Below are positions 815 to 33,733 of a DNA stretch of 64,000 bases, piece by piece. Both the position numbers and the translations under genes were made by a program. Location: the NCBI GenBank assembly GCA_021788015.1, contig JAJYLD010000001.1, positions 273,581 through 337,580 on the forward strand. Direction: 5' to 3'. The stretch is from a bacterium (lineage in GTDB: Bacteria; Patescibacteriota; Patescibacteriia; Patescibacteriales; JAKAJF01). The first letter of the stretch is position 1; each line of letters starts with the position of its first letter. Below the pieces are notes generated by a model that saw nothing but the letters and a program-made list of their open reading frames with translations, searched no databases and was not told the origin of the DNA.

Positions 815-825
815 TTTAATTTATG

Positions 826-946
826 AATCCCGTCTAGAAGCCGCGATCGCTTCAATGGGAATGAGATTGAGATCGCAAATTTAAAAAATTATGCAGGTCG
901 ATGCGAATCAAAAAAAATTTGATCGCGATCTGCTTCTAATGGGATG
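826..946. repeat. start-codon-docked palindromic element, copy 1 (121 nt, candidate non-autonomous mobile element)
   Basis: Arms are CCCGTCTAGAAGC-CGCGATC ... GATCGCG-ATCT-GCTTCTAATGGG. It is preceded by TATG (822-825) and ends with the ATG of rpmJ (944-946). Confidence 0.85.
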
Positions 947-2490: not shown

Positions 2491-3120
2491 ATGGCAAAAA
2501 ATTTGATACCACAATGCAAACAGTGCCGAAGAGCGGGACAAAAGTTATTTCTCAAAGGCGAGCGCTGTTACTCGCAAAAATGTGAAATAGTAAAAAGAAA
2601 TTATCCGCCCGGAATCCATGGCGTAAAAGGTAAAAAGAGACAAAGCGAATACGGCATGCAATTGCAGGAAAAGCAAAACGCGAAAAAGGAATACGGCCTT
2701 TTGGAAAAACAGTTCCGTTTAACTTTTGAAAAAGCGAAAAGGGAACAGGGTCAGGCCGGTGAAAATCTGCTTAAGTTGCTTGAAACGAGATTGGACAATG
2801 CCATTTACCGTTTGGGGATCGCCGCCAATCGCAATCAGGCCAGACAGATTATCGGCCACGGCCACATCGTGGTCAATGACAAAAAAGTAAACATTCCTTC
2901 ATTTCAACTTAAGTCGGGTGATGTTATAAAAATAAAACCGGCCAGCAAAAAATCGAAATTGTTTTCGGATTTGGAGACAAAACTTAAAAAAACGCAAATC
3001 CCGGGCTGGTTGAATTTTGACGTTAAGGAATCTACGGCTAAAATTTTGCACCGACCGAATATGGACGACATTAAAACCAATATCAATGTTCAGATGATCG
3101 TTGAATATTATTCAAAGTAA
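2491..3120 (+). CDS. rpsD: 30S ribosomal protein S4
   Basis: N-terminal CKQCRR...C..KC zinc-ribbon-like segment and an S4 domain (RLDNAIYRLGIAANRNQARQIIGHGHIVVN). Confidence 0.95.
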   Translation: MAKNLIPQCKQCRRAGQKLFLKGERCYSQKCEIVKRNYPPGIHGVKGKKRQSEYGMQLQEKQNAKKEYGLLEKQFRLTFEKAKREQGQAGENLLKLLETRLDNAIYRLGIAANRNQARQIIGHGHIVVNDKKVNIPSFQLKSGDVIKIKPASKKSKLFSDLETKLKKTQIPGWLNFDVKESTAKILHRPNMDDIKTNINVQMIVEYYSK

Positions 3121-3292: not shown

Positions 3293-4111
3293 ATGCAAAC
3301 AATCGCTTTACCTAAGAAAATCGAATTTAAAAAAGGCGAGGAGCCGAATCGCGGTTCAATCATTATAGAGCCTTGCTATCCCGGTTACGGGACCACTTTG
3401 GGTAATTCATTGCGACGCGTTTTGATTTCGTCTTTGCCGGGAGCGGCCGTAGTCGGGGTAAAAATAAAAGGAGCCGACCACGAATTTACAGCCATCCCGC
3501 ATATCAAAGAAGATGTCTTGGAAATTATTTTAAATTTAAAGCAACTGCGCTTAAAGGTTTATAGTGAAGAGATCGTGAAATTAAACTTGGAAGTTCATGG
3601 CGAAAAAGAAGTGAAAGCGAGTGATATCGAAAAAAACAGCGAAGTTGAAATTATCAATAAAAATTTGGTTATCGCTCACATAACCGATATGGCCGGCAGT
3701 TTAAGCATGGAAGTTTACGTCTCGCAGGGCCGAGGCTACGAAACCATAGAGGCAAGAGAGACAAAAAAGCACGAAATCGGCTATATCGAGATGGATTCAA
3801 TTTTTTCTCCGGTATTTTCCGTCGGAGTTAATATTGAAAATGTTCGCGTCGGAAAAATGACCAACTGGGATAAATTAATCTTGGATATAACCACGGACGG
3901 CACTATCGCCCCGAAAGAAGCGTTTAATCAGGCCGTTGAAATTTTAATCAACCAATTCACCTCTTTAAAAACTATTGAGGAGGGCGAAGCGATTGAAGAA
4001 AAAAAAGAAGAAGTTGAAGAACCGGTTGAAGAAACGAAGGCGAAAGAGGAAGAAAAAGAAGAGATCGGAGTCGGGGAAAAGAAAAAAAGAGGCCGACCGA
4101 AAAAGGTTTAA
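3293..4111 (+). CDS. rpoA: RNA polymerase alpha subunit, N-terminal domain plus acidic linker and KRGRPKK tail (no recognisable alpha-CTD)
   Basis: The alpha-NTD sequence is present (GTTLGNSLRRVLISSLPGAAV..). The protein is only 272 aa and the last ~45 aa are E/K-rich, ending GEKKKRGRPKKV. Confidence 0.85.
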   Translation: MQTIALPKKIEFKKGEEPNRGSIIIEPCYPGYGTTLGNSLRRVLISSLPGAAVVGVKIKGADHEFTAIPHIKEDVLEIILNLKQLRLKVYSEEIVKLNLEVHGEKEVKASDIEKNSEVEIINKNLVIAHITDMAGSLSMEVYVSQGRGYETIEARETKKHEIGYIEMDSIFSPVFSVGVNIENVRVGKMTNWDKLILDITTDGTIAPKEAFNQAVEILINQFTSLKTIEEGEAIEEKKEEVEEPVEETKAKEEEKEEIGVGEKKKRGRPKKV

Positions 4112-4116
4112 ATCTG

Positions 4117-4226
4117 GTCATGCTGGAGGGAACCACGAGTCTTCGGGACGACCGATAGCATTTCGCACCACGAGATCCTATCCCCCGGATCAAGCCCGGG
4201 GCTAAAGGCAATCGCTCCAGGATGAC
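4117..4226. repeat. GTCAT-TIR hairpin element (family 2, copy A, MITE-like)
   Basis: Ends are GTCATGCTGGAG ... CTCCAGGATGAC. The nested hairpin GATAGCATTTCG/CGAGATCCTATC is shared with the copies at 4939 and 34948. Confidence 0.85.
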
Positions 4227-4234
4227 ATAACTAT

Positions 4235-4585
4235 ATGCGACACAGAGTAAAAGGAAAAATTTTAGACAGAAAAAAAGAACCGAGAGAAATGATGTTAAAA
4301 AATTTGGCATCAAGCGTTTTGATATACGAAAAAGTAAAGACGACCGAAGCGAAAGCGAAAGCGGTAAGAACTTTGGTTGAACGGGCGATTACGACTTCAA
4401 AGAAAGGCGATCTGAACGCGCGTAGAAAATTAATCGCAACTTTGCCGCAAAAAATGGCCGTAAAAAAAGCCATGGAAGTTTTGGGCAAGCGCTATGAAGA
4501 AAGAAATGGCGGCTACACGCGAATGGTTAAGTTGGGCGTAAGACCGGGAGACGGCGCCGAGATTGTTCAAATTGAATTAGTATAA
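4235..4585 (+). CDS. rplQ: 50S ribosomal protein L17
   Basis: MRHRVKGKILDRKKEPREMMLKNLASSVLIYEKVKTTEAKAKAVR...; operon position supports the call. Confidence 0.9.
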   Translation: MRHRVKGKILDRKKEPREMMLKNLASSVLIYEKVKTTEAKAKAVRTLVERAITTSKKGDLNARRKLIATLPQKMAVKKAMEVLGKRYEERNGGYTRMVKLGVRPGDGAEIVQIELV

Positions 4586-4938: not shown

Positions 4939-5020
4939 GTCATACCGGAGGGAGTTCTGGACTCGGGACGACCTATAGCATCTCGCACCACGAGATCCTA
5001 TCGCTTCGCTCCAGGATGAC
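4939..5020. repeat. GTCAT-TIR hairpin element (family 2, copy B)
   Basis: GTCATACCGGAG ... CTCCAGGATGAC, 82 nt, same orientation as copy A. Confidence 0.85.
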
Positions 5021-24115: not shown

Positions 24116-25306
24116 ATGCATAAAAATATCGGTGTTTTTTTTGGAGGCAAAAGCCCGGAACATGACGTTTCCATAATTACGGCCCAGCTTATCATTTCCG
24201 AGCTCAAGAAAATGGGATATGTCGTTACGCCCGTTTATTTAAGCAAAGGAGGGGAGTGGCATATCGATGAAAAATTGGGCCGGTTAAAATTTTTTCATGA
24301 GGACGACAGGGAAGTTATGCTTAAAAATTTTCGGAAATACTACTTGGATTTGGAAAATTCAAACGGAAAAATCATTTTTAAAAAGAAAGGGTTGGGTTCA
24401 AAAAAAATCGAAATCGATTTGGCATTTCCCGCTTTCCACGGCATGAACGGAGAGGACGGAACCGTCCAGGGCCTTTTTGAAATTTTGAATATTCCCTACG
24501 TCGGTTGCGATGTCGCGTCATCCGCGATAACAATCGATAAAATTCTGACCAAGCTGTATTACCAAAGCCAAAATATCGCTACGACCAAGTTTGTTTATTT
24601 TACAAAAAAAGATTGGAACGGAAACAGAGACGAAACGCTCAAAAAAATAAAAACATTGCGATGGCCGTTGTTCGTTAAACCGCCTAAACTGGGTTCCTCA
24701 ATCGGAATTACGAAAGCGAAGAATGAAGAAGGATTGATTTTTGGCATCGAAGTCGCTTTGCATTACGGAGAAAGAGTTTTAGTTGAGGAAGGCGTCGAAA
24801 GTTTAATGGACGTGACATGTTCCGTCATGGGAAACGACGAGTTGACCGCTTCCTTGCTCCAAGAATCTGTTTTTCAAAGCGATTTGCTGGATTTCGAAGA
24901 AAAATATTTGAAAGAAGGTGGAACGCAATTCGGGGAATCGAAAAGAGGGGTCGTTATTCCGGCGCGACTTGACGAAAGAATCACTCGCGCAATTCGCGAA
25001 AAAGCGAAAGAAATTTATAAACTTTTCGGATGCAGCGGCATCGCGCGGGTGGATTTTCTTTTTGACGAGTCAATGAATATTTTCTATGCCAACGAGGTCA
25101 ACACTTTGCCGGGAACTCTCTATCATCATCTCTGGAAAGCGAGCGGGGTTGAACTTGACGAACTCATTGCAAAATTAATCGGTTACGCGGAAGAAAAATA
25201 CAAAATGAAAAATGAAATCCAATATACATTCGAATCCGGAATGTTAAAATATTCTAAATCAATAAAATTATCCCTTAAAGAAGAAAAGGATGGCCAATCG
25301 AACTAA
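24116..25306 (+). CDS. ddl: D-alanine--D-alanine ligase
   Basis: GVFFGGKSPEHDVS, HGMNGEDGTVQGLFEILNIPYVGC, ATP-grasp ...ARVDFL....ANEVNTLPG. Confidence 0.9.
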   Translation: MHKNIGVFFGGKSPEHDVSIITAQLIISELKKMGYVVTPVYLSKGGEWHIDEKLGRLKFFHEDDREVMLKNFRKYYLDLENSNGKIIFKKKGLGSKKIEIDLAFPAFHGMNGEDGTVQGLFEILNIPYVGCDVASSAITIDKILTKLYYQSQNIATTKFVYFTKKDWNGNRDETLKKIKTLRWPLFVKPPKLGSSIGITKAKNEEGLIFGIEVALHYGERVLVEEGVESLMDVTCSVMGNDELTASLLQESVFQSDLLDFEEKYLKEGGTQFGESKRGVVIPARLDERITRAIREKAKEIYKLFGCSGIARVDFLFDESMNIFYANEVNTLPGTLYHHLWKASGVELDELIAKLIGYAEEKYKMKNEIQYTFESGMLKYSKSIKLSLKEEKDGQSN

Positions 25307-26444
25307 AGATTTACAATTGTCCGTTATCAAACAAATCGAACTTAGGGCTTCGAGATATCCGGATGTCGTTTCTTTGGCGCAAGGAATCCCGAGTTTTGAC
25401 ACCCCGGAGAGCATAAAAAGACGGGTGGAAAACGCCTTAAAAAGGGGAGTGGTGGCAAAATACTCTTTAAGCCCGGGATTGCCGGAACTTAGAGAATTGA
25501 TTGAAATTTCTCTGGCTCGGGAAAACATGTTTTATGATTGGCAAAAAGAAATTATAGTTACCGCCGGTTCGATTGAGGCCATAACTGCCGCGATTTTGGC
25601 CGTTACCGATCCGGGCGACGAGGTCATAATTCCGGAACCCACTTATACGAGCTATCGCGAAGTTATTATTTTGGCAGGATGCAAACCGGTTTTTGTTCCC
25701 CTTGATGAAAATAACGGCTGGTCATTCGATTTGGACAAGTTTAAAAAAGCGATTACTCCGAAAACAAAAGCGATTTTTTATTGCAACCCTAATAATCCGA
25801 CTGGAACGATTTATTCGAAAGAGAACCTTTTGGGTTTGGCTAAAATCGCGGAAGAAAGCGATTTATATCTGATTTCCGACGAAGTTTATAAAGATTTTAT
25901 TTTTAACGGCGAAAAATTCTTCAGTTTGGCCGAAATTCCGAAATCGCGCAAACGAGTGATAAGAATTTTTTCTTTTTCAAAAGCTTTCGCCATGACGGGC
26001 TGGCGCATTGGTTATTTGCACGGCGACGAATCCGTTGTAAAAGAAATTTTAAAAGTTCACGATTGTCTCGTCACTTGCGCTCCGGTCGTATCTCAATACG
26101 GAGCCATGGGCGCTTTGGAAATGGGTGAAAAAGACGTAAAATTTTTTGTGGGTGAATTTAAAAAAAGAAGAAATTTGATCTGTGAACGGCTTGACAGTTT
26201 AAAAAATATTTTCAGCTATGTAAAACCGAACAGCGCCTACTACGTTTTTCCGAAAATTTTAAGGGAAAACGTTAAGTCTTGGGATTTTTCTTTGGCGCTC
26301 TTGGAAAAAGCGCGAGTGGCCGTTGTCCCCGGTATCGCTTTCGGACCGAACGGAGAAGGCCATATTCGCATGAGTTTCGGCAGAAGCGAGGACGACATAA
26401 ACAAAGCCTTCGATCGCATGGAAAAAATGTATGAACCCCGTTAG
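25290..26444 (+). CDS. class I/II PLP-dependent aminotransferase
   Basis: NPNNPTG and the PLP-lysine region SFSKAFAMTGWRIGY. The last two codons and the stop lie inside the repeat element. Confidence 0.85.
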   Translation: MANRTKDLQLSVIKQIELRASRYPDVVSLAQGIPSFDTPESIKRRVENALKRGVVAKYSLSPGLPELRELIEISLARENMFYDWQKEIIVTAGSIEAITAAILAVTDPGDEVIIPEPTYTSYREVIILAGCKPVFVPLDENNGWSFDLDKFKKAITPKTKAIFYCNPNNPTGTIYSKENLLGLAKIAEESDLYLISDEVYKDFIFNGEKFFSLAEIPKSRKRVIRIFSFSKAFAMTGWRIGYLHGDESVVKEILKVHDCLVTCAPVVSQYGAMGALEMGEKDVKFFVGEFKKRRNLICERLDSLKNIFSYVKPNSAYYVFPKILRENVKSWDFSLALLEKARVAVVPGIAFGPNGEGHIRMSFGRSEDDINKAFDRMEKMYEPR

Positions 26445-26554
26445 AAGCCGCGATCGCTTTAGCAAATAAAAAATACAAATAGGATTAAGATTTTAGTAAT
26501 TTTTAATATTTAATATGCGGATCGAAATGATCGCGACCTGCTTCTAACGGGATG
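26434..26554. repeat. start-codon-docked palindromic element, copy 2 (121 nt)
   Basis: CCCGTTAGAAGCCGCGATCGC ... GATCGCGACCTGCTTCTAACGGG. It is preceded by TATG (26430-26433) and ends with ATG 26552-26554. Confidence 0.85.
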
Positions 26555-27286
26555 AAATCTTTTTTAAAATTTTTTTTGAAACATTATCTTAAATTTTTAG
26601 CGAAGTTGAACTTACTTATCCATAGACCGAAAATAATAGCTATCGCCGGAAGCACGAATAAAACATTTGTCAAAGAAGAAATCGGAAAAGTTCTGGAAAA
26701 ACATAATTTGAGTTTTCGTTTAAACCCGAGAAATTTTAACACGGAAATAGGTTTGCCTTTGGCCGTCTTAAATTTAAAAAGCGGATATAATTTTTATTTG
26801 GACTGGATTCCGGCCGTCTTCAAAGCGCCGTTTTCGATTTTTTCGGCAAATTATCCGAAAATTTTAGTCTTGGAGCTTGGTATCGCCGAACCCGGAGATA
26901 TGAAATTTTTGCTTTCGATTATAAGACCGAACGTGCGCGTCATTACGGATATAACGCAAAGATACCGCGAATCCTTCGATGATATGGATGAATTGACCGG
27001 GGAATACGCTTTATTTTTAAAAACGGCGGAAAAAGGGGATTTGGTCATTTTAAATTCCGATAACGATAAAATCGCGGAAATTTCCAAAGAATCCAAAGCT
27101 CGAGTCATAATGTTCAGTCTGCACAACGTTTCTCCGTGGCAAGGAAAAATAACCGAAAAAACCGATATTTACCAAAAAATTTTTGTCCACGGCGAGGAAT
27201 ATAAAATTTTAAGACATGGCGATCACCACGCTTACGCCTTATTGATCGGACTTATAATTGAAAAATATGTCTGTGAAAAGAAATAA
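26552..27286 (+). CDS. Mur-ligase central-domain-only paralogue with degenerate P-loop
   Basis: IIAIAGSTNKTFVKE (GSTNKT instead of G-x-x-GKT/S). 244 aa with no C-terminal ligase domain. Confidence 0.6.
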   Translation: MKSFLKFFLKHYLKFLAKLNLLIHRPKIIAIAGSTNKTFVKEEIGKVLEKHNLSFRLNPRNFNTEIGLPLAVLNLKSGYNFYLDWIPAVFKAPFSIFSANYPKILVLELGIAEPGDMKFLLSIIRPNVRVITDITQRYRESFDDMDELTGEYALFLKTAEKGDLVILNSDNDKIAEISKESKARVIMFSLHNVSPWQGKITEKTDIYQKIFVHGEEYKILRHGDHHAYALLIGLIIEKYVCEKK

Positions 27287-32431: not shown

Positions 32432-33697
32432 TTAACCATTTTTTTCTACCGATTCCCTGAATTTTTCCAAAAATATTTTGGCCGAGTGCCGCCTGACCGG
32501 ATGTACTTCCTCGACTAATTTTTCGCTGTCAATCCATTTCCATCCGGAATGATCCCAATAATTTATTTTTATATCCGAATCTGTTCCGGCGAATTCGGCG
32601 ATAAAGAGACCCTGCTTCTGCCCTTTGTAACCCAAAATTCTCATCGCCCGGCTTTCATACTTCCCCATTTCTTTTTTATCTCTGAATTTGTATTTATAAA
32701 CATTTTTTATGGCGCGAACGGGTTTGAATTTTGTCGTGCATAATTCTTCGCGCAATTCTCTTAAGCCGGCCTTTTCTATATTTTCATGATCCGTTCCGCC
32801 TTGAGGAACCTGCCAATGTTCCTCATACCCCGCGCGTTTCACCAATAAAATCTTAAATTTGCCATTTTCTTTTTTGTACAAGACACAGGCCACGTTCGGG
32901 CGGTAGAACAACGGATAAACAAAACGCCACATGATAAAACGATACGGAAAAATTACGGTTGCGTCCAAAATTCTTTTCCATCGCCATGGCTCTAAAATCA
33001 GTCTCCATGCCCATTCCATGCCGAAAAAACGAAAAATTTTCGGAGCGCGTTTCACTTTCCCGGCGATAAAATCGAAAGTTCCTCCGACTCCCATCCCTAT
33101 TTTTACCGACGGCGTTTTTCTTAAATCGTGGAAAATCCATTTATCCTGACGCGGATGCCCGAAAGCGGAAAAAATAATATCGGGGCGCGCGGAATCGATT
33201 CGTTTTATCAATTCTTCATCCTTGTCTTCTCCTTTTATCCATTCCCCCGCTTTAATTTTCCATTCGCCGTGTTTCAAACCTTCTTCCGCTCCGACAATTT
33301 TCAAATCGGGAAATTTCTTTTTTAAATTTTCCGCCGCTTTTTGCGCGATTCCTTTCTCTCCGCCGATAAGGTAAATCGATTTTCCCTTCCTTTCGGCTAT
33401 AGCGCAAATATCATAAACCAAATCGGCCCCGGCAATCCGATCCAATCTTTTGCCCATAAGCCGAGCCGCGAATTTCAAACCGATGCCGTCGGGGACGGCT
33501 AAGTCGGCGGCGTTCAGGATGTAAAAAAATTCTTCATCCTTTTCGGCCTCGATCAAGAATTCCGGATTGGGAGTCACGATTTGATGTTGTCTCCCGTCTT
33601 TTAAAAATAATTCTATTTTTTTCAAAATATCGACCTTGTTCAAGGCGGAGATATTGATTCCAAGTATATTAATTACGCTCATCGCTTTATATTTCAT
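32432..33697 (-). CDS. WecG/TagA/CpsF-family glycosyltransferase fused to a NUDIX hydrolase
   Basis: The N-terminal ~250 aa are TagA-like (VTPNPEF...ADLAVPDGIG...FGHPRQDKW). The C-terminus carries a Nudix box GGTDHENIEKAGLRELREEL. Confidence 0.8.
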   Translation of the reverse strand: MKYKAMSVINILGINISALNKVDILKKIELFLKDGRQHQIVTPNPEFLIEAEKDEEFFYILNAADLAVPDGIGLKFAARLMGKRLDRIAGADLVYDICAIAERKGKSIYLIGGEKGIAQKAAENLKKKFPDLKIVGAEEGLKHGEWKIKAGEWIKGEDKDEELIKRIDSARPDIIFSAFGHPRQDKWIFHDLRKTPSVKIGMGVGGTFDFIAGKVKRAPKIFRFFGMEWAWRLILEPWRWKRILDATVIFPYRFIMWRFVYPLFYRPNVACVLYKKENGKFKILLVKRAGYEEHWQVPQGGTDHENIEKAGLRELREELCTTKFKPVRAIKNVYKYKFRDKKEMGKYESRAMRILGYKGQKQGLFIAEFAGTDSDIKINYWDHSGWKWIDSEKLVEEVHPVRRHSAKIFLEKFRESVEKNG

Positions 33698-33701
33698 TAT
33701 T

Positions 33702-33731
33702 CCCGTCGAAGCGATCGCGACTTCTAACGAG
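33702..33731. repeat. collapsed 30-nt version of the start-codon-docked element
   Basis: The minus strand reads CTCGTTAGAAGTCGCGATCGCTTCGACGGG-aata-ATG (tagA-NUDIX start 33697). It begins 2 nt after the ligT stop. Confidence 0.7.
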
Positions 33732-33733
33732 AT

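Follow-up and report, generated by a model that had tools for sequence, protein, structure and literature searches.

Short hairpin elements in start codons of Patescibacteria genes, a probable MITE-like family

Correia elements (NEMIS) of Neisseria, RUP of Streptococcus pneumoniae and ERIC of the enterobacteria are repeats of ~100-150 bp with hairpin-forming terminal inverted repeats (TIRs) and a short target duplication. Their copies are numerous and differ in the interior; they are transcribed together with their neighbours and often have no transposase nearby. As far as known, they use simple target sites (e.g. TA) and are found in either orientation, anywhere in intergenic DNA. We analysed an element with the first set of properties in a stretch of 64,000 nucleotides from a member of the Patescibacteriota (positions 273,581-337,580 of contig JAJYLD010000001.1, assembly GCA_021788015.1; hereafter the window), where it occurs as three full copies and a remnant, together with family members from other genomes and from metagenomes. 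Unlike Correia/NEMIS, RUP and ERIC, this family is located in the start codon, rebuilds that codon, has one orientation and shows near-identical ends over many class-level lineages of the candidate phyla radiation (CPR). It probably is a non-autonomous TIR family resembling MITEs (transposable elements of miniature size with inverted repeats), which inserts into start codons, rebuilds them, becomes entrenched there and relays ribosomes to the gene through a short open reading frame (mini-ORF).

Small repeats that are tolerated in operons or genes while reading frames are preserved, as here, are also known as MIRUs in Mycobacterium tuberculosis and RPEs in Rickettsia. The short ORFs of MIRUs overlap the flanking stop and start codons and keep translational coupling, making them the closest analogue of the relay proposed here. 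However, MIRUs are tandem minisatellite units without TIRs or hairpin, RPEs lie in frame within coding sequences, and neither splits or regenerates a start codon. REP sequences and BIMEs are extragenic palindromes of 20-40 nt with a GTAG foot, whereas the present elements are ~117 nt long, lie at gene starts and have a duplication, which sets them apart. Mobile elements using safe sites are known downstream of glmS, upstream of tRNA genes and in rDNA. To our knowledge, none takes the start codon itself as its insertion site and restores it. A MITE-like family is as such a known kind of element; the combination of start-codon insertion, codon regeneration, strict orientation, signs of retention under selection at one shared site and a likely relay is apparently undescribed. 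No description of such an element was found in full-text literature, either by sequence or by topic.

Location in start codons and target duplication

Family members were collected in two scans. The GTDB scan (one genome per species) used the pattern CCCGTTAGAAGCN{0,4}CGCGATC, which contains no ATG and selects one subfamily, and yielded at least 114 loci. The scan of JGI metagenomes was based on the 9-nt ends only (CCCGTTAGAN{85,115}TCTAACGGG, perfect ends required) and yielded at least 120 loci. Both scans together gave ~250 distinct elements (1.65 Mb of loci). The common ends are Y-CCCGTTAGA...TCTAACGGG-R, and many subfamilies are alike at the ends only. Elements of the T...A class have a median length of 117 bp (interquartile range 114-120); a second class has the ends C...G. 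The subfamily of the window ends in T-CCCGTTAGAAGC-CGCGATCGC...GATCGCG-AYCT-GCTTCTAACGGG-A.

An ATG directly follows one end in 105 of the 127 elements of the first set, where ~2-4% would be expected, in agreement with the enrichment at start codons proposed in the initial annotation of the window. In the majority of cases this ATG begins an ORF of 100-800 codons (gene starts are based solely on ORFs). When both sets were pooled, 127 of 152 T...A elements directly adjoined an ORF of 80 or more codons, and only 15 of 76 C...G elements. The remaining C...G elements, often arranged in tandem arrays, are at sites such as GTAAA and GTTGA; targeting of stop codons by this class was considered and rejected, since the upstream ORF ends at the left junction in only 13 of the 76. 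Orientation, scored from the internal asymmetry of the element (a gapless arm versus an arm with a 4-nt bulge), was that of the gene in all 85 scorable copies with a flanking ATG. The genes downstream of the copies are unrelated in function. A rough count in the window gave ~17 gene starts with ATG[AG]A versus 50 intergenic ATG[AG]A and 156 intergenic TG[AG]A; on these numbers, a target motif combined with lethality of intragenic insertions predicts 10-25% of the copies at starts, and not ~84%.

It had been proposed that the element inserts immediately 3' of (T)ATG without a duplication and carries a ready-made ATG as its end. This was not supported. The five bases before the first T of the element are the same as the five after ...ACGGG, and they depend on the gene (ATGAA, ATGGA, ATGAG, ATGCG, ATGTC). 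Because the flanks co-vary with the second codon of the gene, they are a target-site duplication and not a fixed end of the element. The TGNN duplication measures 4 bp in 75 of the 114 copies of the first set; in 8 copies it is one base pair shorter (3 bp), in another 8 one base pair longer (5 bp). An exact 4-bp duplication flanks 91 of 153 T...A elements and 49 of 79 C...G elements (59-62% of all). The duplicated 4-mers are mostly T-N-N-A in both classes (TGAA, TGGA, TAAA, TTGA), and TGAG is also frequent. The second option of the initial annotation, a TIR MITE with a 3-bp ATG duplication, was right as to the TIR MITE, but the duplication is TGNR, 4 bp (3-5 bp) long, and not ATG.

Of 114 copies, 108 have a T beside the 5' arm, irrespective of the sixth base of the gene. 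This T pairs with the A after the 3' arm; the outermost pair is Watson-Crick in 99% of the 114 copies. C...G elements at starts have the structure ATGAA-C[...]G-TGAA, in which the outer ATG is kept and ORFs of 86-551 codons begin at an inner GTG. It follows from these cases that the terminal purine belongs to the element, and that the first base of the start comes from the element and the TG from the duplication. A 5-bp duplication with an asymmetric extra T was discarded for one of 4 bp next to a paired terminal base, in view of the same cases and of the complementarity of the outermost pair. Elements of the T...A class nearly always split a start codon after its A and before its TG. The last base of the element (A, or G giving GTG) and the duplicated TG form the new start, which directly adjoins the 3' arm; the old ATG remains upstream of the element. 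The interrupted gene therefore retains a start codon, as had been supposed, with only its first base supplied by the element. The duplication also accounts for the matched AUGNR on both sides of the element; no stop directly follows the outer AUG codon, in contrast to the stop behind the take-off codon in programmed bypassing of the T4 gene 60 type.

Among the matches listed for the GTDB scan, 61 of 80 carried CPR/Patescibacteria labels, 11 were unclassified and 8 had other labels (taxon labels as in the database records). The CPR labels were Paceibacteria, Saccharibacteria, Nomurabacteria, Levybacteria, Kerfeldbacteria, Sungiibacteriota, Terrybacteria, Wildermuthbacteria, Liptonbacteria and Parcubacteria. 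Seven loci (L009, L010, L034, L039, L050, L062 and L082) are from metagenome-assembled genomes labelled 'uncultured Gammaproteobacteria'. These labels may be wrong; rpmJ of L062 is 92% identical to rpmJ of the window, and L082 is a single 785-kb contig.

Anatomy of the copies in the window

As annotated initially, each of the three full copies lies directly before the ATG of a real gene, namely rpmJ, a gene with a Mur_ligase_M domain and a gene for a 517-amino-acid protein. The features of the copies are as follows (Pfam: domain assigned with Pfam).

823-825, + strand: outer ATG of copy 1 (the original start codon), 8 nt past the infA stop codon (812-814)
824-827, + strand: left target duplication of copy 1, TGAA
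828-944, + strand: copy 1, 117 nt, T-CCCGTCTAGAAGC...GCTTCTAATGGG-A
829-841, + strand: 5' arm of copy 1, CCCGTCTAGAAGC, with a 1-nt insertion
842-848, pairing with 921-927, + strand: inner stem of copy 1
928-931, + strand: 3'-side bulge of copy 1, ATCT, 4 nt
932-943, + strand: 3' arm of copy 1, GCTTCTAATGGG, with one mismatch
891-947, + strand: mini-ORF of copy 1, 18 codons, from the ATGCAGG loop block across the 3' arm
945-947, + strand: stop codon TGA of this mini-ORF, overlapping the rpmJ ATG as ATGA
944-1057, + strand: rpmJ (L36; Ribosomal_L36, Pfam), 37 codons, rebuilt start at 944-946
945-948, + strand: right duplication of copy 1, TGAA, inside the rpmJ start
26431-26435, + strand: outer ATG of copy 2 (26431-26433) and left duplication TGAA (26432-26435)
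26436-26552, + strand: copy 2, 117 nt
26437-26448 and 26540-26551, + strand: perfect arms of copy 2, with bulge ACCT at 26536-26539
26515-26547, + strand: mini-ORF of copy 2, MRIEMIATCF
26545-26547, + strand: stop codon TAA of this mini-ORF, inside the 3' arm, 4 nt upstream of the gene ATG
26552-27286, + strand: gene with Mur_ligase_M domain (Pfam), rebuilt ATG at 26552-26554
26553-26556, + strand: right duplication of copy 2, TGAA
38472-38477, + strand: perfect TATAAT, 7 nt before the outer ATG of copy 3
38485-38489, + strand: outer ATG of copy 3 (38485-38487) and left duplication TGCA (38486-38489)
38490-38607, + strand: copy 3, 118 nt
38491-38502 and 38595-38606, + strand: perfect arms of copy 3, with bulge ATCT at 38591-38594
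38560-38619, + strand: mini-ORF of copy 3, 19 codons, from ATGCAGA in the loop
38607-40160, + strand: gene for a protein of 517 amino acids that has a signal-like segment at its N-terminus; rebuilt ATG at 38607-38609
33701-33732, - strand: arms-only remnant, T-CTCGTTAGAAGTCGCGATCGCTTCGACGGG-A including the terminal pair (30-nt core 33702-33731)
32432-33697, - strand: WecG/TagA-NUDIX gene behind the remnant (Pfam)

The final base of each copy doubles as the A of the gene's ATG; in copy 1 it is A944, of the rpmJ ATG. The motif T-ATG-NAY, reported upstream of each full copy, was confirmed in all three, and the copies align at their ends as TATG-NA-Y-CCCGT(C)TAGAAGCCGCRATCGCTT ... TGATCGCGAYCTGCTTCTAAYGGG-ATG, with AT-rich, diverged interiors. 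The palindrome had been recognised correctly, with its limits drawn one pair short; T...A (C...G in relatives) has to be added, which gives the sizes of 117, 117 and 118 nt. The 12-bp arms, described as perfect, are so in copies 2 and 3 but not in copy 1. Copy 3 lacks the octamer GCGATCGC that copies 1 and 2 share with the remnant, and reads GCAATCGC in its place. The outermost pair of copy 2 is a C/A mismatch, and the two duplication copies of copy 3 differ at one base (left TGCA vs right TGTA). The conserved interior block AWTTATGCRGRT is indeed present and is the start of the mini-ORF in all three copies; in copy 3 this mini-ORF crosses the 3' arm and the gene ATG in the +1 frame and stops at a TAA (38617-38619).

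The collapsed 30-nt copy also exists, on the minus strand. It is situated between the stop of a LigT-family gene (33734) and the WecG/TagA-NUDIX start (33697), with a 4-nt gap to the ATG. Like the arms-only copies of 45-48 nt found elsewhere, it is a product of internal deletion. The perfect TATAAT at copy 3 suggests that the original mRNA at this site may have been leaderless; a promoter scan did not call a full promoter here, the -35 hexamer having 3 of 6 matches.

All three full copies fold as long hairpins (z = -3.1, -3.3 and -5.6 versus shuffles). The consensus fold of 28 diverse copies has a 14-bp outer stem, a 4-nt 3' bulge and an inner stem; of its 20 predicted pairs, 9 show compensatory changes. 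The bulge is WYCU (ATCT, ACCT or TCCT) and recurs in subfamilies with different stems. The ends thus pair into one long terminal hairpin, and not into two separate subterminal hairpins as had been suggested. In line with a MITE, the TIRs consist of a perfect outer repeat of 13-14 bp and an inner repeat, and size and copy number also agree, with only mini-ORFs of 10-27 codons inside the elements.

Within the window, the exact 12-mer arm alone is not significant (9 matches with at most 2 mismatches vs 3.7 expected). The copies are beyond chance because the paired architecture recurs in the GTDB and metagenome loci. The infA-element-rpmJ sequence is also present in a second assembly. Rfam gave no gathering-score match in the window or in six loci, and for copy 1 the E-value mode gave only a chance-level result (E above 1). 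No phage or viral carriers were found by blastn against INPHARED or by a pattern scan of IMG/VR.

With regard to the neighbouring genes, the aminotransferase ORF upstream of copy 2 (25290-26444) now ends at the TAG in the 5' arm of this copy (26442-26444), and ftsW in L008 likewise ends at a TAG inside the 5' arm of an element. The insertion has thus also rewritten the C-terminus of these two proteins. The rpmJ gene directly behind copy 1 is missing among the stored gene calls of the source contig.

Mobility, apparent retention and possible translation past the hairpin

The initial annotation considered the repeat a non-autonomous mobile element, for which empty sites in related genomes were now found. 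At rpmJ, the window, L062 and L059 carry a copy and L068 has an empty site (with a GTG start); at rpsM, a copy is present in L068 and absent from the other three. Another six pairs of filled and empty sites were found at 58-71% protein identity. In L069, a 78-nt element of another subfamily is nested in an AGAAGC-type element, with TAAA flanks. Tandem elements have exactly 6 nt between neighbours, which is expected if the new copy uses the duplication of the older one. The filled and empty orthologous sites, the nested copy and the tandem copies show that the element moves. On the minus strand of L105, at ~300-330 and ~3930-3960, 18-nt in-frame remnants were found (ATGAAAACTTCTAACGGG-ATG and ATGGGAACCCCTAACGGG-ATG), which look like deletion or excision scars and would add six N-terminal codons if the outer ATG is used.

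After insertion, the element appears to be retained by selection at the ftsW-murG junction, where it is present in three genomes. The third codon positions of murG are 24-29% identical between these (61% in the closer pair), while the arms of the elements are 94-100% and the interiors 62-66% identical (87% in the closer pair). Synonymous sites are saturated here, and the element evolves much more slowly than they do. Divergence of the element tracks that of the host, which favours inheritance under selection.

The bias for start codons would result from a target preference for (A)TGNR together with survival: intragenic copies would be lethal and neutral intergenic copies would be deleted, whereas a copy between a gene and its initiation signals could be removed only by precise excision. 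The gene would come to depend on the element, and as a consequence the arms would be conserved.

In two of its three frames the 3' arm stops at the gene start, as TTC-TAA-CGGG-ATG (-7) or as ATGA (+1); the 5' arm has a TAG by symmetry. A mini-ORF running from an ATG in the loop across the 3' arm, with a stop at -7 to +15, was present in 72 of 96 elements in sense orientation versus 33 of 96 in the reverse complement, and in 34.7 +/- 3.8 of 96 (maximum 46) when the interiors were shuffled. With one representative per sequence cluster the count was 34 of 46 versus 20.0 +/- 2.7 in shuffles. The metagenome set gave 32 of 58 in sense orientation, 9 in the reverse complement and 19.8 +/- 3.3 in shuffles. 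At the murG site a 23-codon mini-ORF is intact in the three genomes, with synonymous changes, and among 15 mini-ORFs of the same length variability increases from codon position 1 to 3. On the sense strand, the interior contains more A (0.39-0.45) than T (0.28-0.31). The ORF of the outer ATG spans the whole element in 16 of 79 copies.

From these patterns we infer that the mini-ORF relays ribosomes to the rebuilt start. Ribosomes would start in the unstructured A-rich loop, at the mini-ORF, or at the old start, and translation of the mini-ORF would melt the 3' arm and the hairpin. Termination would occur most often at the in-arm TAA (4 nt before the new ATG), otherwise at the ATGA overlap or a few codons downstream, with reinitiation at the rebuilt start. 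A relay of this kind would explain both the single orientation and the flush junction.

Other routes of expression were also considered. Shine-Dalgarno-like motifs precede the outer ATG in 7 of 90 and 9 of 58 copies vs 14 and 5 in control windows, which is no enrichment, and there are almost none before the inner ATG. An internal outward promoter was rejected: the loop has no consistent -35/-10 pair, and the scan of copy 2 called no promoter. TATAAT or TANNWT precedes the outer ATG by 4-16 nt in 29-43% of the copies. This is only weakly above the AT-rich background, for which reason leaderless mRNA was rejected as a general account. An in-frame N-terminal extension was rejected as well: the frame that continues into the gene is closed more often than expected, with at least 15 open codons in 11 of 96 elements vs 16.4 +/- 3.0 in shuffles (under 2 standard deviations).

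As to the enzyme, the TIRs and the short T-N-N-A duplication point to a DDE-type transposase, which would move the element in trans. As noted initially, the window itself holds no transposase: no transposase, integrase or HUH domains were found in its 56 ORFs against Pfam. A search of the 1.65 Mb of loci for an autonomous partner, by unpaired ends and by ends 0.3-6 kb apart with matching duplications, gave only pairs of separate small elements; every pair at this distance had further ends inside.

Several points weigh against the reading as a MITE-like family with start-codon insertion, entrenchment and relay. No autonomous copy or transposase was found in the 1.65 Mb of loci (partial genomes), the ORFs of the window or the viral and phage collections. 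A symmetric DDE mechanism alone yields neither a fixed orientation nor an ATG-anchored junction, and the length of the duplication varies from 3 to 5 bp. At GTAAA-type targets the base before the duplication is the same as the last base of the element, so that the division into 4 bp and one terminal base is not certain in all classes. The conservation at ftsW-murG could stem from repeated independent insertions of a circulating master copy at a favoured target. The mini-ORF is absent from 24 of 96 elements in the GTDB set and from 26 of 58 in the metagenome set, and the first ATG past the ORF of the outer ATG opens the relay ORF in only 27 of 79 copies vs 15.6 +/- 3.2 in shuffles. Finally, the shuffle statistics overstate significance, as the elements are related to each other.

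We extend this reading only tentatively to a Patescibacteria-wide transposon lineage that evolved the start codon as a safe harbour, by means of the A/TG cut, the rebuilding of the codon, the mini-ORF relay and a host dependence that preserves the parasite, with a possible shared handle for genome-wide control of translation initiation in reduced genomes.

Among the alternatives, removal or bypass of the element at the RNA level appears unlikely. This would involve cleavage by RNase III at the bulge to leave a short new leader (cf. T7 early mRNA), juxtaposition of a split ribosome binding site (RBS) as in T4 genes 38 and 25, a shunt or a hop from AUG to AUG. A stem of >20 bp with a conserved 3'-side bulge 12 bp from its base, where the outer and inner AUGs meet, would suit such a process, as would the absence of the relay mini-ORF in 25-45% of the copies and the frequent termination of upstream genes at or in the 5' arm (e.g. 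as an ATGA overlap with the outer ATG). However, the sense-strand excess of ATG-initiated ORFs ending at -7 or +1 and the strand asymmetry of base composition are left unexplained, and before the outer ATG there is no enrichment of Shine-Dalgarno-like motifs for the stem to bring near. In the known cases (the split RBS of T4 genes 38 and 25, the shunt of the cauliflower mosaic virus (CaMV) type and the bypass in T4 gene 60) a stable hairpin likewise lies between the signals or a short ORF and the start or landing site. These are single evolved viral sites, whereas here a mobile element brings the hairpin to many genes and the statistical signal is for a mini-ORF terminating at the start codon. 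Translation across the hairpin, brought up in the initial annotation as ribosome transfer between the two AUGs, is compatible with the data; the evidence favours the mini-ORF relay and not the hop.

We give little probability to a folded-hairpin or abutted-end site for a tyrosine recombinase (integron attC, Xer/Crypton), in which ...GCTTCTAACGGG-R-TGAA-Y-CCCGTTAGAAGC... would be inverted binding sites and the repeats the crossover region. Integron attC sites are likewise imperfect palindromes (57-141 bp) with GTTAGA/TCTAAC-like ends, a variable centre and strand-marking bulges, directly upstream of an ORF, and this size range, centre and conserved extra-helical bulge are also found here. GTTAGAA and TTCTAAC in the arms each match 6 of 7 positions of the integron core sites GTTRRRY and RYYYAAC. 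An asymmetric spacer would account for the orientation specificity, and both the arrays with exactly 6 nt between arms and a HigBA module between repeats holding these hairpins (L143, see below) would fit. However, the order of the boxes is inverted relative to attC, with GTT outermost on the 5' arm (GTTAGAA...TTCTAAC), the crossover would have to fall outside the core G|TT, and the repeats, target duplications here, vary from 3 to 5 bp. There are no binding arms at the gene starts and no cassette-with-ORF arrangement in the CPR loci, and no integrase (IntI) was found beside the arrays of L143 or within the window.

Very improbable is an IS200/IS605-type palindrome-associated transposable element (PATE), in which a folded single strand that brings its own ATG would be placed 3' of the short target (T)ATG by a Y1 (HUH) transposase, and no duplication would arise. 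Like the present family, PATEs and REP/RAYT are palindrome-based, orientation-specific, non-autonomous and mobilised in trans; the strict orientation to the target (85/85), the stable single-strand hairpins and the asymmetric 4-nt bulge, which is kept across subfamilies and could mark one strand, would agree with this. PATEs and REP/RAYT, however, lack a duplication, form separate subterminal or single short hairpins with guide tetranucleotides and for the most part are found downstream of genes. The present elements have a 4-bp duplication, with flanking repeats that co-vary with the second codon, and a single long terminal hairpin at gene starts, besides G-ended members that give an inner GTG start. 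No TnpA was found in the ORFs of the window or the loci examined. Taken together, the fixed orientation, the bulge and the integron-core-like arms (GTTAGA/TCTAAC) keep single-strand and tyrosine-recombinase mechanisms alive at low probability.

An immobile, host-encoded ancestral leader (riboswitch, thermosensor or protein-binding hairpin), which would suit the purifying selection on arms and part of the interior at ftsW-murG and the fixed position and orientation relative to the start codon, is scarcely credible in view of the filled and empty orthologous sites, nested and tandem copies, target duplications, deletion scars, functionally unrelated downstream genes and absence of an Rfam family match, which contradict the purely regulatory origin left open in the initial annotation. 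Inserted copies may have been recruited for regulation secondarily.

Consequences and other repeats

If the census holds (three full copies and a remnant per ~65 window genes; up to 4 per 8-kb locus), a few per cent of the genes in many CPR genomes lie behind a hairpin of >20 bp. Gene callers can choose the outer ATG or overlook short genes such as rpmJ. As there is little Shine-Dalgarno signal at these CPR genes, the elements bear on translation initiation there. The persistence of parasite DNA in highly streamlined genomes needs an explanation, and entrenchment is one. The family is a natural experimental system for bacterial termination-reinitiation or hairpin bypass, and its conserved 21-nt ends could be used as a probe for CPR DNA.

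The end motif was also found in other arrangements. L143 contains 246-nt direct repeats (2759-3004 and 4009-4254), each with three CCCGTTAGA...TCTAACGGG hairpins, flanking a HigB/HigA toxin-antitoxin module. This contig is un-CPR-like (PEP-CTERM, MutY, RNase R), so that the end motif is shared by other, composite elements outside the CPR. A composite of ~120 nt is present at L138 (~999-1120), L172 (~1779-1900), L127 and L148; it consists of a 31-nt hairpin, AAGGCTCACACGGGGCATTAAACCCCGTGTTCGCT... and finally ...GGGGCTTTCTAACGGG. It is usually flanked by GTAAA repeats, has different gene contexts and has no Rfam match.

A second repeat family, AAAATTCTAAATCCTAAA and its complement TTTAGGATTTAGAATTT, is present in the window at 1057-1093, 1256-1292, 2379-2415, 2452-2488, 40154-40190 and 40256-40292, in the spacers around rpmJ, rpsM, rpsK and rpsD and past the gene for the 517-amino-acid protein. 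A similar sequence, TAGGATTTAGAAATTAGAATTTAGAG, is located upstream of a gene in L018. Further repeats of 32-40 nt, 85-95% identical, were found at 4117-4182 (rpoA/rplQ) and 4963-5020 (rplM/rpsI), and inverted at 34948-34979 and 35013-35052 upstream of clpB. A related block, CCTCGGGACGAAC, is present inside the 146-nt element variants of L024.

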